Positions 14,382 through 28,040 of a DNA stretch of 64,000 nucleotides are shown here, in pieces. The number at the start of each line of letters is the position of its first letter. Position 1 is the stretch's first letter. Source of the stretch: Anaerolineales bacterium (lineage in GTDB: Bacteria; Chloroflexota; Anaerolineae; Anaerolineales; UBA4823); assembly GCA_003105035.1 (NCBI GenBank), contig PQAL01000036.1:72499-136498 (forward strand), read 5' to 3'. The translations under genes were made by a program, and so were the position numbers. A model generated the notes under the pieces. That model searched no databases. It worked only from the letters and a program-made list of their open reading frames with translations, and was not told where the DNA came from.

Positions 14382-14786
14382 ATGAGTACAGGAAGAACGC
14401 TTTCATATGTTGCTGCAGTGCTCCTAATCCTCATCGGTGTGGTGTCGCTGTTCATCGGTATCATCTTCATCTGGGGTAGTGCGAGTGCTAATGCTCAACC
14501 AGGTTGGGTGGCCATCGGCCTGGTCTCGGCCGCCATTGGTATCGTCTTGATCGGTGGAGGGGCCTATTTAATATCACTTGCCGGCCGAGGTAAAATGGGA
14601 GCCCCGACACAGAACGTCACGTATAAAGTTGATCTACCAGCCAATGTATCAATGGATACCTTGAAATGCAAATCTTGCGGTGGGTCTTTAACCATGGACA
14701 ATATCACCATGGTTGCTGGTGCACCAGTGGTAAACTGCCCGTATTGTCACAGCACCTATCAATTAACAGAAGAACCTAAATGGTGA
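14382..14786 (+). CDS. small membrane protein: two TM helices plus C-terminal CxxC...CxxC zinc ribbon
   Basis: GGAGG lies 5 nt upstream of ATG 14382 (the track starts at GTG 14376). The hydrophobic helices are LSYVAAVLLILIGVVSLFIGIIFIW and WVAIGLVSAAIGIVLIGGGAYLISL. The C-terminal ribbon reads CKSCGG...CPYCHSTY. Confidence 0.65.
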   Translation: MSTGRTLSYVAAVLLILIGVVSLFIGIIFIWGSASANAQPGWVAIGLVSAAIGIVLIGGGAYLISLAGRGKMGAPTQNVTYKVDLPANVSMDTLKCKSCGGSLTMDNITMVAGAPVVNCPYCHSTYQLTEEPKW

Positions 14787-14847
14787 AATTAATTGTTATT
14801 GAGGTGTCATGACCGGTTCACATAGGAATAGGTTTTCCGGAGGCTAT

Positions 14848-16512
14848 ATGCGTAAACTTTTTATTTCTTTCTCGTTATTATTATGCCTGTTAGTGTGGAT
14901 ATCCTCCCCGGCTCTTGCTCAGACGTATTCCTACACATTACCTAAGGAAACGGTGGATGTTTATTGGAATTCTGACGGCACACTTTCACTGGACTATACC
15001 TATATCTTTACCAACGATCCTTCCGGACCAACAATAGAGTATGTGGATCTTGGTTTACCGAACAACAATTTTTCAATTAACGATATCAGCGCATCCATAA
15101 ACGGCAACCCTGTGTATGATATTTCAACGTCAGGTTTCCAAGGGGAAGGCTGTTGCGGTGTGGCGATCGGCCTTGGTCAGTATTCGGTTCCACCTGGCTC
15201 ATCTGGCACTTTTCAAGCACATGTCAGCAATATTACCGGTGTCCTTGATACCGATACCGAGGATAGCAGCTATGCCAGTGCGGTTTTTGCTCCGAATTAC
15301 TTCGGTGGAAAGATCCATGGCAATACCGATGTGATCGTTACGTTTCATCTGCCCCCCGGGGTTAAACCTGAAGAGCCCAAGTGGCATCCCGCTCCGTCAG
15401 GTTTCCCCGAGACGCCGGTTACAGCGACGGATAGCGAAGGCCGAATTATATATGAATGGGAAAATCAAAATGCTAATGGTCACACATTTTATTTGTTCGG
15501 TGCATCCTTCCCCAAGAGTTACGTACCTGCAGATGCCATCGTAAAGATAGAACCAACAACTCCGTCGGGTTCAAGTGGGCTGAGTAATTTTATAAGCAGT
15601 GCCTTATTGCCTATCTTGTGCATAGGCGGCTTCATCGCCATTGTTGTCAGCGGTATATCATCCAGCCGGAATCGAAAGTTATCATATCTGCCGCCCAAGA
15701 TATCCATTGAGGGTCATGGGATCAAGCGCGGATTGACTGCAGTAGAAGCAGCAATTTTATTGGAAGAACCCCTGGACAAGATCATGACCATGATCCTGTT
15801 TAGCACAATCAAAAAGGAAGCAGCAGAGGTGGTCACGCGCGACCCGCTAGAAGTTAAAGTCTCCGACCCATTGCCAGAAGGTGTCCAATCCTATGAAAAG
15901 GATTTTCTCGAAGCCTTCAAAACCAAAGACCCAGTTGTTCGTCGAAAAGCGATGCGTGATATGGTGGTAAGCCTGGTCAGGAATGTATCGGAAAAAATGA
16001 AGGGGTTCAGCCGACAGGAGACAGTAGCATACTACAAGGACATAACCAAGCGTGCCTGGGAACAGGTGGAAGCTGCAGCGACCCCTGAAGTTAAAAGCGC
16101 GAAGTACGAAGAAGTTATGGAATGGACGATGCTGGACAAGAACTACAATGACCGAACAGAAGATGTATTTCGGCATACACCCGTCTTCATCCCAACCTGG
16201 TGGGGCCATTACGATCCTACGTTTGGTAAGGTTGGGACTTCAGCCGGCGCACCAATCTCAACTGGTGGATCCCATAGTGTCCCAGGTGCGGATTTTGCTG
16301 CTTCGATGGCCGCCGGAGTCCAAACCTTCTCGTCCAAAGCCGTTGGCAGCATCACTGATTTCACCTCCAGCATTACTCAGGTCACAAATCCGCCTCCAAA
16401 ACCTTCAACAAGTACCTACCGAAGCAGCGGAGGTGGTGGGCACAGTTGTGCTTGCGCCTGTGCTTGCGCTTGCGCTGGTTGTGCGTGTGCTTGTGCTGGT
16501 GGCGGTCGTTAG
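14848..16512 (+). CDS. signal-peptide/single-TM, DUF2207-like membrane protein with a C-terminal (Cys-Ala)n tail
   Basis: From M at 14848 the sequence MRKLFISFSLLLCLLVWISSPALA|Q looks like an SPase I signal. The ecto-domain begins YSYTLPKETVDVYWNSDGTLSLDYTYIF (DUF2207-like pattern). One TM helix (LLPILCIGGFIAIVVSGI) is followed by SSSRNRK, consistent with positive-inside. A cytoplasmic domain of about 280 aa (GLTAVEAAILLEEPLDKIMTMILF...) ends in GGGGHSCACACACACAGCACACAGGGR*. Confidence 0.8.
   Translation: MRKLFISFSLLLCLLVWISSPALAQTYSYTLPKETVDVYWNSDGTLSLDYTYIFTNDPSGPTIEYVDLGLPNNNFSINDISASINGNPVYDISTSGFQGEGCCGVAIGLGQYSVPPGSSGTFQAHVSNITGVLDTDTEDSSYASAVFAPNYFGGKIHGNTDVIVTFHLPPGVKPEEPKWHPAPSGFPETPVTATDSEGRIIYEWENQNANGHTFYLFGASFPKSYVPADAIVKIEPTTPSGSSGLSNFISSALLPILCIGGFIAIVVSGISSSRNRKLSYLPPKISIEGHGIKRGLTAVEAAILLEEPLDKIMTMILFSTIKKEAAEVVTRDPLEVKVSDPLPEGVQSYEKDFLEAFKTKDPVVRRKAMRDMVVSLVRNVSEKMKGFSRQETVAYYKDITKRAWEQVEAAATPEVKSAKYEEVMEWTMLDKNYNDRTEDVFRHTPVFIPTWWGHYDPTFGKVGTSAGAPISTGGSHSVPGADFAASMAAGVQTFSSKAVGSITDFTSSITQVTNPPPKPSTSTYRSSGGGGHSCACACACACAGCACACAGGGR
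16447..16497 (+). repeat. coding low-complexity tract (TGY-GCN)5-GGT-(TGY-GCN)3 = CACACACACA-G-CACACA
   Basis: Read directly: tgt gct tgc gcc tgt gct tgc gct tgc gct ggt tgt gcg tgt gct tgt gct. Gly codons flank it, and the stop is at 16510-16512. Confidence 0.95.
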
Positions 16513-16532
16513 GATTTCTCAGGTAATCTTTT

Positions 16533-17918
16533 GTGAATGCCTTTAATTCCCTGATCAAGAAGATCCAGGTCCGGGTTGGGTATAACGATAGGCTTCCTCA
16601 ACCCGGTCTATACCATTATGATCGCCAGGATAATGGTGAGAGATCCCGCATCCATTTACGTGTTGACCCGGATGGTACTGGTTTATTGATCGTGAATGCC
16701 AGCCGGATTATGCATCTCAACCCCACCGCAGCCTCAATGGCTTACCTGATCCTGGAAGACACGCCTCAACAAGCAGCCACACGTTCTCTTGCTCATTTGT
16801 ATCACGCCCGTAAAGAAACAATTGTTAATGACTATGCGCAAACTGCCGAGAAATTGCATGAGCTGATCAGGCCGGATGGTGCCTGCCCCATTCATGAGCT
16901 CGACCTTGAGGTCACGGCACCTTTCTCCACCCGCCCTTCTGCTCCATACCGCATGGACCTGGCTATCACCTACCGTTGTAATAATGATTGCTCTCATTGC
17001 TACAATGCTCGCCCCCGCGATTATCCAGAGCTTTCAACTCGAACCTGGCACCAGGTTCTCGACAAGCTATGGGCGATTGGCATCCCCCACGTGGTATTTA
17101 CCGGCGGAGAGCCTACCCTGCGTAAGGATCTACCTGAGCTGATCGCTCATGCAGAACAAAATGGCCAGATCACAGGGATCAATACGAATGGAAGGCGATT
17201 ATCCGATCGAAATTATGTTGACCGGCTGGTGGAAGCAGGCCTGGATCATGTGCAGATCACGCTCGAATCACATTCTGCAGAGGTCCATGACTCCATGGTC
17301 CACTCGCCTGGTGCCTGGAAACAGACTGTGGCTGGGATCCGCAATGTGCTGGAATCACCTCTTTATGTGATGACCAACACCACGATGCTCACCACGAACA
17401 GCCCCACATTATCCCAAACGCTGGAATTCCTGGCAGAGTTGGGAGTTCCTACGGTTGGCTTGAATGCCTTGATCTACTCTGGTCGGGGTCGAACCGTTGA
17501 TAGTGGCCTGGCTGAAAACAAGCTCCACAGCCTGCTTGAATTGGCCAGGGAGAGCACCAACATTCATCAACAGCGCCTGATCTGGTATACGCCTACCCAA
17601 TATTGCCATTTTGATCCTATGCAGTTTGAATTGGGCGTAAAAGGTTGCACTGCGGCCCTTTATAACATGTGTGTCGAGCCCGATGGTTCAGTTATACCCT
17701 GCCAGTCCTATTATCAATCCCTGGGTAATATCCTATCCAACGAGTGGAAGGATATTTGGAACCACAAACTATCCATACGGCTCCGTGAACGTCAAGACAT
17801 CCCTGAGAAATGTGTACCCTGTTCATTGTTATCAGAGTGTGGGGGTGGCTGCCCCCTGGCAATCATTTCTGGCGAGGCAAATTCGGTTTTAGGAGGAGAA
17901 AATGACCAGCATAATTGA
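16533..17918 (+). CDS. radical SAM/SPASM-domain enzyme with N-terminal PqqD/RRE-like extension
   Basis: The GTG start is supported by N-terminal similarity to the downstream paralogue. The CX3CX2C motif reads AITYRCNNDCSHCYN (Cys codons 16977-17000). The SAM motif is FTGGEPTL. The SPASM pattern is GCTAALYNMCVEPDGSVIPCQ...LGNI...CVPCSLLSECGGGCP. N-terminal residues ~45-95 (GLLIVNASRIMHLNPTAASMAYLILEDTPQQAATRSLAHLY) resemble a PqqD-like peptide-recognition element. Confidence 0.85.
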   Translation: MNAFNSLIKKIQVRVGYNDRLPQPGLYHYDRQDNGERSRIHLRVDPDGTGLLIVNASRIMHLNPTAASMAYLILEDTPQQAATRSLAHLYHARKETIVNDYAQTAEKLHELIRPDGACPIHELDLEVTAPFSTRPSAPYRMDLAITYRCNNDCSHCYNARPRDYPELSTRTWHQVLDKLWAIGIPHVVFTGGEPTLRKDLPELIAHAEQNGQITGINTNGRRLSDRNYVDRLVEAGLDHVQITLESHSAEVHDSMVHSPGAWKQTVAGIRNVLESPLYVMTNTTMLTTNSPTLSQTLEFLAELGVPTVGLNALIYSGRGRTVDSGLAENKLHSLLELARESTNIHQQRLIWYTPTQYCHFDPMQFELGVKGCTAALYNMCVEPDGSVIPCQSYYQSLGNILSNEWKDIWNHKLSIRLRERQDIPEKCVPCSLLSECGGGCPLAIISGEANSVLGGENDQHN

Positions 17919-19050
17919 TTCAATCAAGAGACTCTTCACCAAGGAAACCCCTCTTCCTCCTGGGATTTACCATTATCAGGCTCCGCCTGATGCCCCTACC
18001 CCATACCGCTTGCACCTACGCCTGGAGCCGGATGGGACTGGTCTGCTGATTGTCAATGCATCGACTATCCTGCACCTTAATCAGACTGCGGCGGAACTTG
18101 CCTATCACATGATTATTCAGACCCCTGAAAACCAGGTTGCGGATGAAGTCGTCGCTCGCTACCGGGTAAATCGCCAGCAAGCTCTCCAGGATTATCAATC
18201 TCTTAACGAACGTATCCATACCCTGATCAACACTCCTGATCTCGACCCAGAAATGTTCCTTGATTTCGAACGCACTACCCCACATACTCAAAAAACCTCC
18301 GCACCCTTCCGCCTGGATTGTGCATTAACGTATCGATTACCTGAAGGTGCAATGACAGCTTCTTTTCGCCCTCCCAGGCACATTAACCAGGAGCTGACCA
18401 CCCAGGAGTGGTGCAGCATTTTCGATAAGGCATGGACCGTAGGGATCCCACATATTATCCTTACGGGTGGTGAGCCGACCTTACGAGAAGATTTACCCGC
18501 ATTAATCGCCCACACTGAAGCAAATGGCCAGGTGGTAGGGTTATTGAGTGATGGGTTAATACTGTCGAATAATGCTTACCTCCAAGAACTCCTACAGACC
18601 GGGCTAGATCATTTGATGTTATCTCTTAATCCCGATGATGAGAGATCGTGGCAAGCACTCAATAACGCACTATCCGCTGACCTGTTTGTGGCTGTCCACC
18701 ATACGATGACTCTTCAGAATGCGGATTCAACTCAGCAGATTCTAGAGAAAATTGCGAAAGCAGGCGTAAAAGCCATTTCGCTTACCGCAGCCGACTCAAC
18801 CTTACACGCCCTGTTGGAGACTTCCCGTAATCAAGCAGCTTCATTGGGCATGACACTTATCTGGGATTTACCAGTACCGTATTCTGCCTTCAACCCGATT
18901 GCCCTGGAGGTGCAGGAAGATGAGGTACCAACTGCCGCAGGACAAGCATGGTTATATATCGAACCCGATGGGGATGTTTTACCAGCCCAGGGGGTCAATC
19001 AGGTGCACGGAAATATCCTGCGTGATCCGTGGGATAAACTGTGGCGGTAA
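17902..19050 (+). CDS. radical-SAM-fold paralogue lacking all Fe-S cluster cysteines (probable non-catalytic partner)
   Basis: A strong AGGAGG lies 5 nt upstream of the ATG, and the gene overlaps the preceding gene by 17 nt. It is collinear with the upstream enzyme (PGIYHY, GLLIVNASTILHLNQTAAELAYHMI, SAPFRLD, LTGGEPTLREDLPALIAHTEANGQ, GLDHL). The CX3CX2C position reads ALTYRLPEGAMTASF, the SPASM cysteines are absent, and the whole protein has only 2 Cys. Confidence 0.8.
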   Translation: MTSIIDSIKRLFTKETPLPPGIYHYQAPPDAPTPYRLHLRLEPDGTGLLIVNASTILHLNQTAAELAYHMIIQTPENQVADEVVARYRVNRQQALQDYQSLNERIHTLINTPDLDPEMFLDFERTTPHTQKTSAPFRLDCALTYRLPEGAMTASFRPPRHINQELTTQEWCSIFDKAWTVGIPHIILTGGEPTLREDLPALIAHTEANGQVVGLLSDGLILSNNAYLQELLQTGLDHLMLSLNPDDERSWQALNNALSADLFVAVHHTMTLQNADSTQQILEKIAKAGVKAISLTAADSTLHALLETSRNQAASLGMTLIWDLPVPYSAFNPIALEVQEDEVPTAAGQAWLYIEPDGDVLPAQGVNQVHGNILRDPWDKLWR

Positions 19051-19673
19051 AACAAAAAACTTGCCGCCATCCCAAAAGCCACAGCCACGTTATATGATTG
19101 CTTTTTCCCCAGCATGGGAATAGCTAGCACCTGGTCGCAAAGAGACAGTAAACCAGGGTCTACTCCGCATACTTCATTGCCAACGATTAGAACAAGCGGT
19201 TGCAGTTGGACCGATAATTCCATTTCATATAGAGGGACAGCCTCGGGAGTATCTTCCAATGCCCAAATCCGATATCCCTCTGCTTTCAACCTATCTACCA
19301 ATAACAGGCTGTTATTCGCCTGCGCCCATGGGAGGTTTAATTCCGCCCCCAAGGCAGTCTTGCTGACCCTGGGATTTTCTGGGGTTGGTGTAATCCCGCA
19401 CAGGTGCAGCTTTTTAATCCCGGTACCGTCCGCGGTCCGCAATATTGAACCAACATTCCACGCGCTGCGCACGTTATCTAATAATGCTTCGACCCACCAA
19501 CCATCAAGCGAAGATACCCTTGGGTTTCCTGCGATCGGGTTATCTAGAGATATCGCCAGTTGCATGCTTGACCGGCACAAAGGGCAACGCTTATTCTTTA
19601 ACTGCCCTTGAACCACAGGGAAGCGTAATCTACAGGTGGGATTCAAGCATTCATAAAATTCTATCGCTGACAT
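18999..19673 (-). CDS. SpoU/TrmH-family RNA 2'-O-methyltransferase with N-terminal zinc ribbon
   Basis: CLNPTCRLRF...CPLCRS forms the ribbon. SpoU motifs follow: NVGSILRTADGTG, LVLIVGNEVCGV and IPMLGKKQSYNVAVAFGMA. Confidence 0.8.
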   Translation of the reverse strand: MSAIEFYECLNPTCRLRFPVVQGQLKNKRCPLCRSSMQLAISLDNPIAGNPRVSSLDGWWVEALLDNVRSAWNVGSILRTADGTGIKKLHLCGITPTPENPRVSKTALGAELNLPWAQANNSLLLVDRLKAEGYRIWALEDTPEAVPLYEMELSVQLQPLVLIVGNEVCGVDPGLLSLCDQVLAIPMLGKKQSYNVAVAFGMAASFLFYRHSLSHGSRRIFPCT

Positions 19674-19744: not shown

Positions 19745-20503
19745 ATGGTTTTCTCAATCGCACAATGGCACCAAAGGTACATGCAACAGGCTCAATGGAG
19801 TGCCAGCCTTCGCGCCTACTTATATTCCCGGGTAGGGATGCGACCTTCCACCAAGGTTTTAGATGTGGGTTGTGGCACAGGAGTTTTGGAGAAGGAGCTG
19901 GATAACCGATTCAGGGCCCCCTCGGTTGGCCTTGATATTGCCATAAGCGCCTTGGATTTTGCCCAATCATACTCCCGAGCAAGCCGATTTGTGGCGGGAG
20001 ATGCCTGTTCCATTCCGTTTGCCTCCCAGAGTTTTGATATCACCCAATGCCATTTTTTGCTTTTATGGCTCAAGGATGTTCGTCAGGCATTGTGTGAAAT
20101 GTCTCGCGTTACCCGTTCTATGGGATTCGTTATCGCTCTTTCCGAGCCTGATTACGGCGGCCGGATCGATTACCCCAACGAATTAGTGCAGCTTGGCACC
20201 TGGCAGACGCAAGCCTTACAGCAGCAAGGCGCCAATCCCTTTATCGGCCGGGAGCTACGGGCACTATTCCATGAAGCTGGCTTGATCAATATCGAAACTG
20301 GCGTAATGGGCGGCCAATGGGCGAAGACTGAGCCGAAAAGTGAATTTGGGCTTGAATGGGACGTAGTCTGCTCAGACCTATCCAATAACTCAACCTTTAT
20401 CCAGCAGGCAGACCAATTAAAACAAATTGACCAGCATTCTCGCGATGCTGGTCAAAGGATATTATTTATTCCAACCTTCTATGCGATTGGACAGGTAAGC
20501 TGA
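19745..20503 (+). CDS. class I SAM-dependent methyltransferase
   Basis: Motif I is VLDVGCGTGVL, followed by the post-I acidic residue and the FD.. motif typical of the Methyltransf_11 type. Confidence 0.8.
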   Translation: MVFSIAQWHQRYMQQAQWSASLRAYLYSRVGMRPSTKVLDVGCGTGVLEKELDNRFRAPSVGLDIAISALDFAQSYSRASRFVAGDACSIPFASQSFDITQCHFLLLWLKDVRQALCEMSRVTRSMGFVIALSEPDYGGRIDYPNELVQLGTWQTQALQQQGANPFIGRELRALFHEAGLINIETGVMGGQWAKTEPKSEFGLEWDVVCSDLSNNSTFIQQADQLKQIDQHSRDAGQRILFIPTFYAIGQVS

Positions 20504-20507
20504 TAAT

Positions 20508-20858
20508 CTATTCCTCTGCTGGCAAACCGAGCTCAATTTGGTCACCGTTTATCCGCACCGGGTATGCCGGGATATCCACAAATGCGGGAAGTGCCAATAC
20601 TTTTCCCGTCCGAATATCGAATCGAGCCCCGTGCCTGGGGCAGGTGATCTCATAACCTTCCAGCGTGCCTTCACCGACCGGGCCATCGTCATGTGAACAC
20701 ACATCAGCAATGGCATAATAATTTCCCGCCAAATTGAAAATCACGATAGGTGTGCCATCGATTTCGATGAATAACCGCTGTCCCTGTCCTAATTCTTCGA
20801 TAGTCGCAACTGGAATGAACTCAAGCTTATCCTGCTCGAGCGTCTTATAGTTATACAT
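20508..20858 (-). CDS. Rieske [2Fe-2S] domain protein (last gene of the suf string)
   Basis: The CSHDDG...CPRHGARF Rieske motifs are present in a 116 aa protein. Confidence 0.85.
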   Translation of the reverse strand: MYNYKTLEQDKLEFIPVATIEELGQGQRLFIEIDGTPIVIFNLAGNYYAIADVCSHDDGPVGEGTLEGYEITCPRHGARFDIRTGKVLALPAFVDIPAYPVRINGDQIELGLPAEE

Positions 20859-20860
20859 GC

Positions 20861-21259
20861 TTAGTTGTCAACCAGGTCGTCACTGGCTTCACCCAGGCCG
20901 TAAACCCCTGCCTTGAGTACTTTTAAGGACAGCAGCGCACATTTTAAACGCACCGGTCCGAGCTCGATACCCAGCATGTCCAAGATATCCTGCTTGTTGA
21001 TCTGTTTGACCTCGTCAAGCGTTTTGCCAATTACGCTCTCTGCCAACAAATCAGCTGAGGCTTGCGAGATAGCACATCCATGTCCATCAAAGGCAACTTC
21101 GCTGACCTTGTTATCACCATTGACACGTAAGTCAATGCGAATATGGTCTCCGCATAACGGGTTATCATCCTCAAACGTAATATCGTGCGGTTCCAGAGCA
21201 CCCCTGAAATGCGGATTTTTATACCGGTCTATGATCAATTCGCGATAAAGGTCATCCAT
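20861..21259 (-). CDS. sufU: SufU/IscU-like Fe-S scaffold or sulfur acceptor
   Basis: LYRELIIDRYKNPHFRG, NPLCGD, GHGCAISQAS and RLKCALL are the SufU-type conserved Cys motifs. Confidence 0.85.
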   Translation of the reverse strand: MDDLYRELIIDRYKNPHFRGALEPHDITFEDDNPLCGDHIRIDLRVNGDNKVSEVAFDGHGCAISQASADLLAESVIGKTLDEVKQINKQDILDMLGIELGPVRLKCALLSLKVLKAGVYGLGEASDDLVDN

Positions 21260-21261
21260 AG

Positions 21262-22509
21262 TTATCCAAAGAAACGCTTGACTTCATGTAAGCCGTCGAT
21301 CAACTGGTCGACTTCGCCAAGGGTATTATATAGGTAAAAACTTGCCCGGGTCGTGGCAGCGATGTTGAACTTTTCATGCAGCGGCATGGCACAGTGATGG
21401 CCTGCGCGTACAGCAATCCCTGAACGGTCCAGCACCTGGGCTACATCGTGAGGATGAACGCCCTCAAAGGTAAAGGAGGCTACCCCACCCTTATAGTTGG
21501 CATCCGGTCCAAATACGCGTACTTCTGGGATCTCAGCCAACCGCCGTAGTGCATAAGCAATCAATTCCTTCTCATGCGTAGCGATCTTTTCCATCCCAAT
21601 AGCCTTAACATAGTCGAGTGCGGCATGCAGTCCGATGGCTTCAGCAATCGCGGGTGTGCCAGCTTCAAACTTGTGCGGTAGCTCATTGGGGCTGAAAGAG
21701 CGCAAAAAGACCCGTTTGATCATCTCTCCACCACCGAGGAAGGGGGGCATTTTGTTTAGCAGTTCTGCCTTGCCATACAACACGCCGATACCGGTCGGCC
21801 CACAAACCTTGTGCGACGAAAAAGCCAAAAAATCCGCATCCAAATCCTGCACATCCACCGGGAAATGTGGCACCGATTGAGCACCGTCAATTAAGGCGAC
21901 TGCCCCCGCTCGGTGAGCTAGCTCCACAATTTCCTTCGCCGGATTGATCGTCCCCAGTACGTTGGACATGTGGGTAAAAGCCACCAGCCTTGGCTTTTGT
22001 TCCAGCAACTTTCGATATACATCTAGCTCTAGCAAGCCATCGGGCGTGATGGTGATAAATTCCAGGCGGATGCCTTTCTCAGCTGCCAGGATGTGCCAGG
22101 GAACCAGGTTGGAGTGATGCTCCATTTCAGTCAGGATCACCAGGTCGTCTTCTTTTAAGAAGGTCCTTCCCCAACTATAAGCGACCAGATTAATCGATTC
22201 AGTCGTGTTGCGGGTAAAGATGACCTCCTTGTTGGACCCTGCATGGATAAAATCGGCCACACGTTGCCTTGCACCTTCATACGCTGCAGTAGCTTCTTCT
22301 GCCAGGGTGTGGACCCCCCGGTGAACATTGGCATTATTCAGCTGGTAGTAATCATCCATCGCCCTGATAACCTGGTTTGGTTTTTGGGTGGTTGCGGTGG
22401 AATCAAGGTATACCAGTGGCACTCCAGGCTGAACCTCGCGGCTTAAGATTGGAAAATCCGATCGAATGGCAGTAATATTAAGTGCAGTTTTTGTCGATGG
22501 GCTAATCAT
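21262..22509 (-). CDS. sufS: cysteine desulfurase SufS (class V aminotransferase group II)
   Basis: IRSDFPIL, the PLP lysine motif SSHKVCGPTGIG and the active-site loop RAGHHCAMP are present. Start chosen at ATG 22509 (MISPST...), directly after the stop of the upstream small ORF. The track ORF extends to 22587. Confidence 0.9.
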   Translation of the reverse strand: MISPSTKTALNITAIRSDFPILSREVQPGVPLVYLDSTATTQKPNQVIRAMDDYYQLNNANVHRGVHTLAEEATAAYEGARQRVADFIHAGSNKEVIFTRNTTESINLVAYSWGRTFLKEDDLVILTEMEHHSNLVPWHILAAEKGIRLEFITITPDGLLELDVYRKLLEQKPRLVAFTHMSNVLGTINPAKEIVELAHRAGAVALIDGAQSVPHFPVDVQDLDADFLAFSSHKVCGPTGIGVLYGKAELLNKMPPFLGGGEMIKRVFLRSFSPNELPHKFEAGTPAIAEAIGLHAALDYVKAIGMEKIATHEKELIAYALRRLAEIPEVRVFGPDANYKGGVASFTFEGVHPHDVAQVLDRSGIAVRAGHHCAMPLHEKFNIAATTRASFYLYNTLGEVDQLIDGLHEVKRFFG

Positions 22510-22517
22510 AGGCGTGG

Positions 22518-22802
22518 TTAGGCAATTGTCCGTGGTTTTGTTCGCCGGCGCGATGGGCGGATTTGGGTAGAATTCTTCGGGCACCATAGGACATGATCCG
22601 GTACCATCCAGCCATCCGTAAGATAGACGCTATCCTTGAATTGAACGGCGATCATTTTTGGATCAACTTGCACCACAGTACCCTCCAGCCAATCGCGGAT
22701 TCGCTCATTTGACTTATCGTGATCGCAATATACTTCAACCCTGTCTCCAACATGGTACTGTTCCTCAAGGTCAGGTGCGTGTGTGAAATACATCTCAGCC
22801 AA
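22518..22802 (-). CDS. hypothetical small protein inside the suf operon (possible SH3/Tudor-like beta fold)
   Basis: 94-aa ORF filling the sufD-sufS gap, with AAGGAGG just upstream. I recognise no family. Confidence 0.5.
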   Translation of the reverse strand: MAEMYFTHAPDLEEQYHVGDRVEVYCDHDKSNERIRDWLEGTVVQVDPKMIAVQFKDSVYLTDGWMVPDHVLWCPKNSTQIRPSRRRTKPRTIA

Positions 22803-22822
22803 CTTTCCTCCTTAGATCCTGC

Positions 22823-24181
22823 TTACTTCATCTTTACAACAATAGCATCTTGAAATCGCTTACGAACGCCTTCAAAAGGGATACGTTGCATGATCGGATC
22901 GAAAAAGCCCTCCACGATCAGATGCTCCGCTTCTGCATACGGGATCCCCCGGCTTAATAAGTAAAATAACGAATCCTGATCTATCTTCCCGACGGTTGCC
23001 CCGTGTGTACAGCGCACATCATCCGCCAGGATCTCCAACCCTGGGATGGAATCAGCGCGAGCCTTGGAGCTCAGCACCAGGTTCCGATTCGCCTGGTAAC
23101 CATCCGTCTTTTGTGCACCCGGTGCCACATAAATCATTCCCTGCCATACCGATCGGCTGCTGTCTTTCAATGCGCCTTTGAATAACAAGTCGCTAGTGGT
23201 GTGCGGAGCAAGGTGGTTCTGTTGGGTATCATGGTCCAGGTGTTGCTTTCCATCAGTAAAGTAAAAACCCGACATTTTCCCTGTCGCACCATCACCAATC
23301 AAGTCGATCTCAGAAAAATTCTTGGTCAGGTTGCTCCCTAAGGCTCCGAAAATCCATTCCAGGGTAGCCTCCCTTCCCACTTGGGCACGCTCATGGCTGA
23401 AATTCCATACATTGTCTCCCCAGGATTGTAGCTCCACGAACCGCAGACTGGCATTATCGCTTATATGTATCTCCACAATGCCCGAATGCATCGTTTGACC
23501 AGGGATTCCATTGGGAGAGGCAGCTTCATGCACATACGTCAACGAAGAGCCAGGCTCCAACCACACCATGATATGTGAAAAATATGCTAATCCTTCCCCC
23601 GGTCCCCAAATCACTGAGTGAAGGGGCACCTCAACCTGTACCCCCGCGGGGATGTAGGCAAACACGCCATACTGCTCCATGGCAGCCGTAAGTGCTGCAA
23701 ACCTGCCTTCTTCAGGCTTGACCACCTGGCCAATAATATTCGCCAATAATTCAGGATATTCTCGCTCAGCTGTATGCAGGTCGGTGAAAATCACGCCCTG
23801 GCGGGTCAATGCCTCATCAACTTTAACCTTCGTATGCTTCGGTTCGATGATCACCTGCCCACCATGCTTCTTGGTGACCAGAGGTTTAAGCAACCAGCTC
23901 GGTGCGGGAGGCAGTGTCGGGTGTTGGCTTCCATTGGGTACGGTAAATTTAGCAACATCCAGGCCGCGTATATCTGTCCTGCGCCATGGTTCGTCCTTAA
24001 TCGTCGGCATGTGCAGGGATTGGTAGAGCGCCCAGGCTTTCTCCCGGTAATCCCTAACAAAGTCCGGGCCTGCCCAATTGCTGGAAAGCGTTTTAATCGA
24101 GTCGCGTGTAAATTGAAAATCACCGGGCTCAGCGCTTACGGTGGGTTTATTACGCGTGATTATCCGGTGTGTGCTCATCAT
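22823..24181 (-). CDS. sufD: Fe-S cluster assembly protein SufD
   Basis: 452 aa with the C-terminal beta-helix pattern ([29 protein letters not shown]...LFYLLSRGI). The 4-nt start overlap with sufB fits SufD. Confidence 0.9.
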
Positions 24182-25584
24182 CCCACCGATCCTGCCATCT
24201 GAAGTTGGATTAGTCGGTTCATCTCTATGGCGTATTCCATCGGCAATTCTTTCACCAATGGCTCAATGAAGCCTGAAACTACCATGGTTGTCGATTCTTC
24301 CTCCGATAAACCCCGGCTCATCAGGTAGAACAGCTGCTCTTCACCTACCTTCGATACGGTTGCTTCATGTCCGATGGTCACATCCTGTTCATCGATCTCA
24401 ATCGATGGGTAAGTATCTGATCGCGACAACGGGTCGAGCAGCAATGCATCGCACACCGTGTTGGATTTACTATCGACGGCTCCCTTATAGACCTTCAATA
24501 AACCCCTGAAAGAGGTTCGTCCACCACCCTTGCTGATCGATTTTGAGGTGATCTTGCTTGAGGTGTGCGGGGCAAAATGGATCGCTTTGCCACCTGCGTC
24601 TTGCGTCTGCCCAGGTCCGGCAAATGCCATAGACAGGATTTCACCCTTCGCACCAGGTTCAAGCAGGTAGCAGGATGGGTATTTCATTGTTAGCTTCGAA
24701 CCCAGGTTCGAATCCACCCACTCCATCGTCCCGCCTTCATGCACCAGAGCCCGCTGGGTTACCAGGTTATACACGTTGGTAGACCAGTTCTGGATGGTGG
24801 TGTAGCGAACCCGGGCACCTTTGTTGACGATGATCTCGATCACACCACTGTGCAGCGAATCTGTCGTATATGTAGGCGCTGTGCAGCCTTCAACGTAATG
24901 CACCTGCGCGCCTTCATCGGCGATGATCAATGAGCGCTCGAACTGCCCGATATTAGCAACATTTAAGCGGAAGTAAGCTTGCAGGGGCAGGTCAACTTTG
25001 ACGCCTTTGGGCACGTAAACAAACGAGCCACCAGACCACACCGCGCTGTTCAATGCGGCGAATTTATTATCTTCGATCGGAATGACTTTACCGAAATACT
25101 GCTTAAAGATATCAGGGTGCTTCCGTAACCCGTCTTCAATGCTCAGGAAAATTACACCCTGTTTTTCGAGGTGCTCCTGGATGTTGTGGTAAACCATCTC
25201 GCTTTCGTATTGGGCACCTACACCAGCCAGGAATTTTTGCTCTGCTTCAGGGATGCCGAGCTTGTTAAAAGTATCCTTGATGGTGTTTGGCACCTCATCC
25301 CAGTTCTTGCTTTCCTGCTGAGTTGGCTTGACATAATAGAATATCTCATGTAGATTAAGGCCTGAAAGGTCACCGCCCCATGTTGGGATGGGTCGTTTTT
25401 CAAAGTGCTCCAGGGCTTTCAAGCGGAAATCCAACATCCATTGGGGCTCGCCCTTCATATCGGATATCTGCTCAACTACCCTTTTCGATAAGCCCTTGCG
25501 TGATTTAAAAACGTAGGTTTCCGGATCACTGAAACCGTACTTGTAATCACCAATATTATCCAAAGTATTTGAGTTCGAGCTCAT
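24178..25584 (-). CDS. sufB: Fe-S cluster assembly protein SufB
   Basis: [23 protein letters not shown], and [11 protein letters not shown]...[24 protein letters not shown] match SufB. Start set at ATG 25584 (GAGGT 4 nt upstream), because the track start at 25644 would overlap sufC. Confidence 0.95.
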
Positions 25585-25607
25585 ATCAACCTCTAAAATC
25601 ACCTGGC

Positions 25608-26381
25608 TCAGGCTGGCACCGTCTCGTATTTCTCGCGCACCCACTCGTAGCCGTGCTCCTCAAGGTTCAACGCCAGGTCTGAGCCGCCTGACTCGACGAT
25701 GCGCCCATCCAGCATGATATGTACGAATTCCGGTTTAATGTAGTTTAGAATGCGTTGGTAATGGGTAATCACCAGTACACCCATCTCGGGACCGCGCAGG
25801 GTGTTAACCCCTTCCGATACGATCCGTAAGGCATCGATATCCAGGCCCGAATCAGTTTCATCCAGGATGGCGATCTCTGGCTTTAACACAGCCATCTGCA
25901 GGATCTCTGCCCGCTTTTTCTCACCCCCAGAAAAGCCTTCATTTAGATAGCGACTTGCAAAGGAGTAATCCATCTTGAGCAAATCCATGCGATCCTTGAG
26001 CATCTTGCGAAATTCCGGCACCGAGATGCCCTTATCTTCCGGGTTTAAGGCCTTCCTGCGAGCGTTAATTGCCGTGCGCAGGAAATTTGCCACCGATACA
26101 CCGGCAATCGATACCGGGTACTGGAAAGCCAGGAAAATGCCCAACCTCGATCTCTCATCAGGTTTCAGCTCAAGGATATTGGTATCCTTAAAAAGCACTT
26201 CGCCTTGAGTCACCAAATAACCGGGATGCCCCATCAGTGTATAAGCTAATGTCGATTTTCCTGTTCCATTGGGACCCATCAGGGCATGTACTTCACCTTG
26301 ATTGACGGTCAGGTTGACACCTTTTAGGATTTCGCGCCCCGCGACATTAACATGCAAGTCCCGAATGTTGATCTCAGACAT
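25608..26381 (-). CDS. sufC: Fe-S cluster assembly ATPase SufC
   Basis: [10 protein letters not shown], the SGGEKKR signature, [14 protein letters not shown] and ITHY match SufC. Confidence 0.95.
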
Positions 26382-27938: not shown

Positions 27939-27967
27939 AGTTGAAAAAAATCTATATTTCATATCTG

Positions 27968-28040
27968 TGGCGAGGGTGGGACTTGAACCCACGACCTGAG
28001 GATTATGATGCCCCTGCTCTGCCAACTGAGCTACCTCGCC
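27968..28040 (-). tRNA. tRNA with CAU anticodon (elongator Met, or Ile2 if lysidinylated); CCA not encoded
   Basis: The reverse complement is GGCGAGG TA GCTC AGTTGGCA GAGC A GGGGC ATCATAA TCCTC AGGTC GTGGG TTCAAGT CCCAC CCTCGCC A. This folds as a full 73-nt cloverleaf. The G1-C72 pair argues against a bacterial initiator. Confidence 0.9.

Follow-up and report, generated by a model that had tools for sequence, protein, structure and literature searches.

The stretch of DNA analysed here (the window) consists of 64,000 nucleotides (nt) of contig PQAL01000036.1, positions 72,499 to 136,498 of the forward strand, in assembly GCA_003105035.1 of an Anaerolineales bacterium. At window positions 14382-19050 it carries four tightly packed genes on the + strand, designated here g1 to g4, of which g2 encodes a membrane protein that ends in alternating Cys and Ala residues (the Cys-Ala tail) and g3 encodes a radical S-adenosylmethionine (SAM) enzyme with a SPASM domain. 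We propose, with moderate confidence, that these genes belong to a conserved cassette for post-translational maturation of the g2 tail, in which g3 would be guided to the tail by a recognition element of the type used in the biosynthesis of ribosomally synthesized peptides that carry post-translational modifications (RiPPs), would probably introduce thioether crosslinks, and would leave the modified tail on the protein. The conserved core of the cassette is g1-g2-g3, and its linkage spans phyla and both prokaryotic domains. A first-pass annotation of the window had described four co-directional, tightly packed genes at these positions, and open reading frame (ORF) analysis confirmed the coordinates.

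Conservation of the Cys-Ala tail

The g2 gene (14848..16512, +) encodes a protein of 554 amino acids (aa) that is the same as database protein P0001. The C-terminus of the protein is CACACACACAGCACACAGGGR, and the gene reads ...GGGGHSCACACACACAGCACACAGGGR followed by the stop codon, exactly as the first-pass annotation had it. The candidate core within this region, (Cys-Ala)5-Gly-(Cys-Ala)3-Gly-Gly-Gly-Arg, corresponds to residues 534-554 (16447..16509), and the stop codon is next. A word-indexed search returned more than 4600 homologues of g2, and CACACACAGCACACAGGGR is invariant at the C-terminus of the best 120 of these, which share 63-100% identity with the window protein. An exhaustive HMMER search of 1.84 billion representatives identified 839 g2 representatives at the 50% clustering level. 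Among the best 150 of the 839 (29-78% identity), 75 have the canonical tail, and most of the others that reach the C-terminus have tail variants in which the Cys positions are kept. These variants include the replacement of Gly with Ser, the arrangement (CA)3-G-(CA)4, a single block of (CA)4-5GGGR, and Val or Asp in place of the Ala that alternates with Cys. In Bathyarchaeia the tail consists of three blocks, C[AV]CACA-x-CAC[AV]CACV-S-CACACA-[SG]GG[VA]G. With identities as low as about 29%, essentially every full-length g2 homologue still has a C-terminal tail in which Cys alternates with x (Ala, Val or Asp), and those g2 sequences that lack one seem to be fragments or products of truncated gene calls. 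The consensus of the core is (Cys-x)3-5 - Gly/Ser - (Cys-x)3-4 - GGGR, with x usually Ala or Val. The tail is near-invariant while the remaining g2 sequence is only about 29-80% identical between homologues, and few short motifs could be expected to be more strictly conserved.

Genomes, one per GTDB species, were scanned for DNA encoding CACACAGCACACAGG, which yielded at least 120 loci. In every case among the at least 120 listed, the matched tail forms the end of a g2 homologue that is 26-69% identical to the window protein, which rules out the possibility that such tails are widespread on unrelated proteins. The DNA that encodes the tail differs in every case, with 120 of 120 genomic versions being distinct among the matches listed, and together these versions use every synonymous codon, including six Arg codons, and three stop codons. 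Since all of the DNA versions differ, selection acts on the tail at the amino-acid level. The codon TGC followed by GCA is self-complementary (TGCGCA), and one could imagine the tail arising as the by-product of a palindromic DNA or RNA element; the 120 distinct DNA sequences and the full codon variety exclude this explanation.

Upstream of the core is the leader-like motif TNPPP (residues 513-517; 16384..16398), a putative recognition site, in which T513, N514, P515 and P517 are invariant in an alignment of g2 homologues (alignment A1). The TNPxP signature lies inside a conserved F..S.IT.VTNPxP sequence. Of 465 homologues with a tail, 341 contain an [NHYL]PxP motif, for the most part separated by 11-21 aa (mode 16-18) from the first Cys of the tail downstream. 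The linker between the motif and the tail is variable, with Gly and Ser accounting for 61% of its residues. The g2 C-terminus is thereby arranged as motif, spacer and core, in the manner of a RiPP precursor.

Linkage of the tail gene to a radical SAM gene

The GTG start codon of g3 (16533..17918, +; 461 aa) at 16533 lies 20 nt past the g2 stop codon. To count which gene follows the tail gene, we used the 107 loci from the tail scan that had at least 700 nt of downstream flank. In 91 of the 107 listed loci a g3 orthologue whose CX3CX2C motif is intact comes next, and in 2 more the gene that follows is a second tail gene with g3 after it. The first-pass annotation had named widespread identical tails without radical SAM neighbours as an observation that would count against its reading, and these counts favour that reading instead. 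Tandem tail genes precede a single g3 in L074 (tails at 51 and 2213) and in L087 (oriented positions 2663 and ~4498), and one Planctomycetota metagenome-assembled genome has, on separate contigs, a tail gene without a neighbouring enzyme (L021) as well as one with an enzyme (L058). More than one tail gene to an enzyme is how substrates and their maturase are usually arranged.

The linkage was also followed from the enzyme to the tail. Metagenomes were scanned with a cross-phylum g3 profile, and 80 loci were kept, 66 of which were evaluable; among these 66 loci, which took in only close g3 orthologues (at least 60% identity), a tail gene is upstream of g3 in 64. The opposing condition named in the first-pass annotation, that the radical SAM genes would regularly occur without a tail protein, was not borne out among these close orthologues. 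The first-pass annotation had asked whether the pair of radical SAM genes, g3 and its paralogue g4, always occurs with the tail gene; it is g3 and not the pair that is conserved with it, as g4 is restricted to Chloroflexota.

Most of the listed tail loci are from Anaerolineae, including the cultured Ornatilinea apprima P3M-1 and Leptolinea sp. HRD-7. Other bacterial loci are from Fermentibacterota (Sabulitectum, Hyd24-12), Aminicenantes/Acidobacteriota, Zixibacteria, Coatesbacteria, Edwardsbacteria, Planctomycetota and one Clostridia bin, while archaeal tail loci occur in Asgard archaea of the Hod-, Heimdall- and Promethearchaeota. Two Bathyarchaeia loci have a zinc-ribbon gene, g2 and a radical SAM/SPASM gene together in the order g1-g2-g3, and the genes that flank them are unrelated.

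The radical SAM/SPASM enzyme

The first-pass annotation had assigned g3 as a radical SAM enzyme with an intact CX3CX2C motif and a SPASM domain, and Pfam matches bear this out (Radical_SAM, E = 1.7e-27; SPASM, E = 8.7e-9). The Cys residues of the CX3CX2C motif (C149, C153 and C156) are invariant in the 17 bacterial and archaeal orthologues of a cross-phylum alignment (alignment A2), as are seven Cys residues in the C-terminal part of the protein (C358, C372, C390, C427, C430, C436 and C440). SPASM (PF13186) is matched in all 17 of these orthologues. An N-terminal RiPP recognition element (RRE) of the PqqD type had likewise been predicted. In the window protein the PqqD match, which covers residues 53-110, is below threshold (18.9 bits versus 23.4), and PqqD is matched in 12 of the 17 orthologues, with a best E of 7e-7. 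The PqqD-like domain extends over approximately residues 25-112, and the N-terminal domain in the AlphaFold2 (AF2) model is composed of four strands and three helices.

The best sequence match of g3 in the PDB is the sactisynthase SkfB (E = 1.7e-20, residues 29-418), followed by BlsE and PqqE. The alignment with SkfB begins at g3 residue 29, and therefore the N-terminal domain is covered by it, in agreement with the predicted RRE. Foldseek matches for the g3 model include SkfB, SuiB, PqqE, CteB, anSME and the epimerase EpeE, and only the RRE-bearing RiPP maturases SkfB, SuiB and CteB cover most of the length of g3 (406-459 alignment columns). SkfB is the best PDB match by structure as well as by sequence, and it is the closest solved relative of g3. 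The hallmarks of an RRE-dependent maturase are present in g3, namely the CX3CX2C motif, a SPASM domain with conserved Cys residues, and the PqqD-like RRE. At the same time, g3 does not belong to any NCBIfam family at the cut-off of its model: all 70 of its 70 matches are far below the cut-offs, the best being NirJ2 with 130.5 bits versus a cut-off of 500, and its scores are about equal against many SPASM families (NirJ2, PqqE, AhbD, MftC and SkfB). The RefSeq name of the Ornatilinea g3 protein is 'radical SAM protein'.

Consistent with the first-pass annotation, no separate gene for a short precursor peptide is found beside g3 in the cassette, where gaps of 22 nt or less between the genes leave no room for one. 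Nor is a leader peptidase or an exporter that could release a mature peptide conserved near g3 in the 120 loci fetched for analysis.

The membrane protein

As described in the first-pass annotation, g2 is a type I membrane protein of 554 aa with a signal peptide, one transmembrane (TM) helix and a cytoplasmic part, an architecture supported by both the ORF and the AF2 model. The signal peptide (residues 1-25, ALA|Q) is followed by a beta-sandwich ecto-domain (residues 28-222), a TM helix (approximately 244-277), a conserved cytoplasmic domain (approximately 280-443) and a disordered C-terminal region (444-554). In the AF2 model of g2, which was built from 25 homologues, a helix for the signal peptide is followed by a beta-sandwich predicted with confidence (residues 28-222), a long TM helix (244-277) and a cytoplasmic domain of moderate confidence that is helical or winged-helix-like (about 298-443), and residues 444-554 are disordered. 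Foldseek relates the ecto-domain most closely to ribophorin I/Ost1 and to the N-domain of M1 aminopeptidases. The basic stretch SSRNRKLSYLPPK that follows the TM helix indicates that the C-terminal half of g2 is cytoplasmic, within reach of a radical SAM enzyme.

The description of g2 as 'DUF2207-like' in the first-pass annotation did not stand up well, as the window protein has no Pfam or NCBIfam match, even at E <= 1. In a set of 38 diverse g2 homologues, DUF2207 (PF09972) gives weak matches to 2 (best E = 2.3e-5) and DUF2207_C (PF20990) gives weak matches to 3 (best E = 2.3e-4). The g2 orthologue of Ornatilinea apprima (P3M-1; WP_075064617.1) is named 'DUF2207 domain-containing protein' in UniProt and hypothetical protein in RefSeq. 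Based on these sequence comparisons, g2 is probably at most a distant relative of DUF2207. Like g2, DUF2207 proteins (PF09972/PF20990) possess an extracytoplasmic beta-sandwich, a membrane anchor, a cytoplasmic region and a Gly-rich C-terminus, but the window protein and most of its homologues do not match DUF2207 even at E <= 1. To our knowledge, neither a Cys-Ala tail nor a radical SAM partner has been reported for DUF2207 proteins, and a literature search found no mention of DUF2207 together with radical SAM. Some g2 homologues (P0241, P0242, P0244, P0245 and P0250; 766-838 aa) have about 220-250 extra residues at the N-terminus, preceding the part that aligns with the window protein. An in-frame ATG at 14809 provides an alternative start for g2 that would extend the protein to 567 aa.

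Other cassette genes and cassette boundaries

The order of genes in the cassette is g1, g2, g3, an optional g4 and then a methyltransferase gene. The first gene, g1 (14382..14786, +; 134 aa), has an ATG start codon preceded by a GGAGG ribosome-binding site. The protein has two TM helices and a cytoplasmic zinc ribbon with a conserved CxxC...CPYC pattern, which agrees with its first-pass description as a two-TM zinc-ribbon protein, and it ends in EEPKW. The zinc ribbon is conserved from Bathyarchaeia to Chloroflexi in the alignment, and the C-terminal E(E/A)PKW is kept in all aligned sequences but one (EEPAW). This conserved terminus could itself be a site of modification or recognition. A weak, sub-threshold match to DUF7559 was found for g1 in Pfam, and none was found in NCBIfam. 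Of the 88 evaluable loci among the matches listed, 79 have g1 upstream of g2, and no g1 gene adjoining g2 was found in the Asgard loci.

The last of the four clustered genes, g4 (17902..19050, +; 382 aa), overlaps g3 by 17 nt and is a degenerate paralogue of it (36% identity over 410 aa, E = 2e-85). The first-pass annotation had the paralogy and the overlap right, but g4 is not free of cysteine as it had stated, for the protein has 2 Cys residues, neither of them at a cluster-ligand position. Where g3 has the CX3CX2C motif g4 has RLPEGAMTASF, all of the SPASM Cys residues are gone, and the protein ends before the final CxxC...CGGGC block, while the RRE-like domain and a GGE motif are kept. Weak matches to Radical_SAM and PqqD were found for g4 in Pfam. 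Among the matches listed, 67 of 94 Chloroflexota-like loci have g4 as a gene of its own, against 0 of 26 others, and it is thus an accessory gene of Chloroflexota only.

The first-pass annotation had placed the end of the cluster at 19050, and in this respect it fell short, since the cassette extends to a class I SAM-dependent methyltransferase gene at 19745..20503 (+; 252 aa; Methyltransf_11, E = 1.4e-18). A homologue of this gene is present in 95 of the fetched loci and is co-directional with and downstream of the tail gene in 52 genome loci, among them loci from Asgard archaea, Planctomycetota, Zixibacteria and Coatesbacteria. In most of these 52 loci it directly follows the last radical SAM gene, often overlapping it. 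The methyltransferase is a conserved member of the cassette. Neither it nor g4 reaches the cut-off of an NCBIfam model.

Between g4 and the methyltransferase gene in the window is a convergent SpoU-family RNA methyltransferase gene (18999-19673, -) that shares 52 nt with the 3' end of g4. The same arrangement is found in the closest relative (L203), and the SpoU gene is common to just 7 loci, all closely related, so that it looks like a lineage-specific insertion and was ruled out as a cassette member. An iron-containing alcohol dehydrogenase gene upstream was ruled out as well, as it is shared by 3 loci only. Downstream of the cassette are suf genes for Fe-S assembly (20508-26381, -), which encode a Rieske protein, a NifU/SufU-like scaffold, the cysteine desulfurase SufS and SufBCD-like proteins. 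They are syntenic with the cassette in 7-12 closely related loci only and were ruled out as part of the system. When all ORFs of the 120 fetched loci were clustered, the conserved clusters were g1-g4, the methyltransferase, a PAS-like insert and genes of lineage-level synteny only, with no conserved protease, exporter or transporter among them. The PAS-like insert refers to a small protein of about 110-160 aa, judged by eye to be PAS-like, which is encoded downstream of the tail gene in 21 loci and is not found in the window; in L055 its gene (1561-2046) lies between g3 and g4. The sole Rfam or ARAGORN match in the 64-kb window is a tRNA-Met (CAT) at 27967-28040 (-).

Proposed modification of the tail

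Linkage and architecture point to the g2 tail as the most likely substrate of g3. In the proposed mechanism, the signal peptide would direct the export of g2 and the single TM helix would anchor the protein, with a C-terminal part of about 280 aa, its last ~110 residues predicted to be disordered, remaining in the cytoplasm. There the putative recognition motif F..S.IT.VTNPxP would be followed by a Gly/Ser-rich spacer of 11-21 residues and then by the near-invariant Cys-x core. Cytoplasmic g3 would dock on the TNPxP motif through its N-terminal PqqD-like element and cleave SAM at the [4Fe-4S] cluster held by the CX3CX2C motif. The resulting 5'-deoxyadenosyl radical would take a hydrogen from an Ala or Val residue, allowing an adjacent Cys thiol to form a thioether of the sactionine or lanthionine type, and the SPASM auxiliary clusters would aid in the crosslinking. 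The single extra Gly or Ser in the core shifts the register of the Cys-x repeat by one. If this residue were the centre of a hairpin, all cross-strand pairs would consist of a Cys opposite an Ala or Val, a geometry that would suit a ladder of crosslinks. The methyltransferase may act next, on remaining thiols or on the C-terminal carboxylate. In Chloroflexota, the catalytically dead g4 probably binds the tail or g3 as a partner without catalytic activity. The modified tail is expected to be retained on the membrane protein because no protease or exporter is conserved nearby. For g1, g4 and the methyltransferase, as for the physiological function of the system, we infer the roles rather than observe them.

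Thioether crosslinking is probably the chemistry involved, by analogy with characterised enzymes. It is favoured because the closest characterised relatives of g3 make Cys thioethers, because x in the repeat is a small residue with abstractable C-alpha or C-beta hydrogens, and because the Gly/Ser register shift pairs Cys with Ala or Val across the putative hairpin.

Several observations weigh against maturation of the tail by g3. Linkage establishes a functional connection and is not proof that enzyme and substrate are involved. Of the 107 listed loci used to count the gene after the tail gene, 7, all of them from Chloroflexota, have a g4-type gene in that position, and 7 have neither a g3- nor a g4-type gene nor a second tail gene. 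The seven loci without a radical SAM gene in the available flank are L002, L005, L021, L024, L038, L105 and L107, in which the operon ends and genes on the opposite strand come next. The enzyme-to-tail count is confined to close g3 orthologues, as stated above, and the AF2 models of g2 and g3 are of only moderate confidence (mean pLDDT, the predicted local distance difference test score, of 61-63). Two loci, L053 (2807-5936) and L077 (2565-5194; in both, coordinates with the tail gene oriented on the + strand and the pair on the opposite strand), have a paralogous pair consisting of a g2-like and a g3-like gene that is convergent to a g2-g4 pair without an adjacent g3. The g2-like protein of this pair has the TM and cytoplasmic domains and lacks both the ecto-domain and the Cys tail, while the g3-like radical SAM/SPASM enzyme has a Cys/Gly-rich C-terminal extension of its own, GGGGCSGCSGSCGTGG. 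It follows that the g2 cytoplasmic domain can partner a radical SAM enzyme without a tail, and a Cys segment in either location fits the role of a cofactor or metal site as well as that of a substrate. Finally, CxC repeats are also typical metal-thiolate ligands, as in metallothionein and CopY (CxCxxxxCxC).

These last points lead to a different view of the tail, in which it is a module on the cytoplasmic face that binds metal or Fe-S clusters (a thiolate cluster resembling metallothionein, a carrier for clusters, or an electron relay) and is not a substrate. In that case g3, in complex with g2, would modify something else or would draw electrons or clusters from the tail. The presence of CxC repeats in the tail, the Cys/Gly-rich segment on the L053 and L077 enzymes with their tailless g2-like partner, the tail genes without an adjacent radical SAM gene and the suf operon that adjoins the cassette in the window are all compatible with such a module. 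Against it, the peptide-recognition (PqqD/RRE) domain of g3 would be left unexplained, as no other peptide-like partner is conserved nearby, and simple thiolate ligands would need neither small Ala or Val residues at x nor the conserved GGGR end. The predicted effect of the one-residue register shift, which would put Cys on both faces of the hairpin, suits cross-strand links from Cys to Ala better than it suits metal binding, and the synteny with suf is limited to the closest relatives (7-12 loci). We regard both a metal- or cluster-binding tail and the accompanying roles for g3 as unlikely.

Alternatively, g3 could act on the tail with a chemistry other than thioether formation: the oxidation of Cys to formylglycine or a thioaldehyde as in anSME, epimerisation of Ala or Val, C- or S-methylation together with the methyltransferase, or the generation of a cofactor that is released from the tail. 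The near-equal NCBIfam scores of g3 across NirJ2, PqqE, AhbD, MftC and SkfB, with no cut-off reached, would accommodate such a chemistry, as would the presence of anSME and the epimerase EpeE among the structural matches and of a methyltransferase as a conserved partner. SPASM enzymes that depend on PqqD turn peptides into the cofactors pyrroloquinoline quinone (PQQ) and mycofactocin. The tail CACACACACAGCACACAGGGR contains no sulfatase-type C/S-x-P-x-R motif, however, and no sulfatase domain was found in g2 with Pfam or NCBIfam. No protease is conserved in the cassette that could release a cofactor, and the best sequence and structure matches, which cover most of g3, include the thioether-forming enzymes SkfB and CteB. 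Taken together, another chemistry on the tail seems quite unlikely.

That g1 is the substrate, or a second substrate, of g3, with a Lys-Trp crosslink or a modified C-terminal residue at E(E/A)PKW-COOH and some other role for the g2 tail, is very unlikely: SuiB, which matches most of g3 in structure, does form Lys-Trp crosslinks, MftC and PqqE do work near peptide C-termini, and g1 does have a conserved position and end (with the frequencies and single exception given above), but Asgard loci keep g2, g3 and the methyltransferase without an adjacent g1, the folded zinc-ribbon protein has no leader-spacer-core layout, and the g2 tail is more strictly conserved and always directly precedes g3.

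Relationship to known systems

Maturation of the g2 tail by g3 would have its nearest parallels among the sactisynthases and related enzymes. SkfB (sporulation killing factor), AlbA (subtilosin) and CteB/Tte1186 (SCIFF) share with g3 the order of a PqqD-like RRE, a radical SAM domain with CX3CX2C and an auxiliary-cluster domain, and in sactisynthase systems, as here, a Cys-rich candidate substrate is encoded directly beside the enzyme. SCIFF in Clostridia resembles the cassette in being wide within its lineage and housekeeping-like rather than part of an antibiotic cluster. The systems differ in that sactisynthases act on peptides of 40-60 aa, whereas the proposed substrate of g3 is the C-terminus of a conserved 554-aa membrane protein, and in that no leader peptidase or exporter is conserved nearby. 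The g2 core, with its strict Cys-x alternation, differs from every sactipeptide core listed; the cassette has an added methyltransferase and, in Chloroflexota, a dead paralogue; and g3 scores 94.6 bits against the skfB NCBIfam model, for which the cut-off is 300.

Modification of Cys-rich peptides by radical SAM enzymes is known, as is that of some proteins, such as QhpC and sulfatases. QhpD crosslinks Cys residues of the QhpC subunit through thioethers, and full-length sulfatases have a Cys or Ser oxidised by anSME. Like the proposed activity of g3, these SPASM enzymes act on Cys residues of a protein that is functional afterwards, and anSME is one of the structural matches. Their substrates, in contrast, are soluble or periplasmic enzyme subunits with unrelated motifs, none of which is a membrane protein or has a (Cys-Ala)n tail; g3 has no sequence match at equivalog level, and the g2 tail lacks the sulfatase motif. 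The ACGX-repeat system (TIGR04340), in which the substrates are repeat peptides, also combines a SPASM enzyme with a short Cys-repeat substrate, but its repeat unit is different, its substrates are short peptides, and g3 scores only 67.7 bits versus a cut-off of 400. The pseudo-SAM/SPASM family TIGR04347 is among the matches of g4 and has similarly lost the cluster-binding Cys residues, but g4 scores 39.5 bits versus a cut-off of 525 and is a duplicate of g3 that did not descend with this haloarchaeal family.

The first-pass annotation knew of no described equivalent of the cassette, and none has emerged. No NCBIfam model is reached at cut-off by g3 or matched by g1 or g2, and a full-text literature search found no published description of the cassette. 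The string 'CxCxCx' in one radical SAM paper (PMC10288494) refers to StsB and the streptosactin precursors, which are unrelated. A PADLOC search for anti-phage defence systems gave no specific match and only generic ones (radical SAM proteins to viperin models, the methyltransferase to mad2). RRE-guided maturation of the tail of a conserved full-length membrane protein, in both prokaryotic domains, is not a known process.

Biological implications

The known substrates of RiPP-type radical SAM maturases are short precursor peptides dedicated to that purpose. In the cassette described here, an enzyme with the same recognition-domain architecture is tied by gene linkage to the tail of a conserved membrane protein of about 550 aa, a pairing found in at least 120 species-level genomes; g2 representatives at the 50% clustering level number in the hundreds. 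The cassette's hosts are anaerobes, the majority of them uncultured, from Anaerolineae, Bathyarchaeia, Asgard archaea, Aminicenantes, Fermentibacterota and other groups. On a more tentative level, the cassette may represent an ancient RRE-guided radical SAM system of Bacteria and Archaea, including Asgard archaea, that converts the tail into a crosslinked and possibly methylated thioether ladder, or into a cofactor tethered to the protein, on the cytoplasmic face of the membrane. Direct testing is feasible given the two cultured hosts, Ornatilinea apprima P3M-1 and Leptolinea sp. HRD-7, and the short substrate fragment. If tail maturation is borne out, it would constitute a new post-translational modification of proteins and a new class of substrates for SPASM enzymes, and it would provide a functional handle on the g1, g2 and g3-clade families of 'hypothetical' proteins, which are core genes of environmentally dominant lineages.

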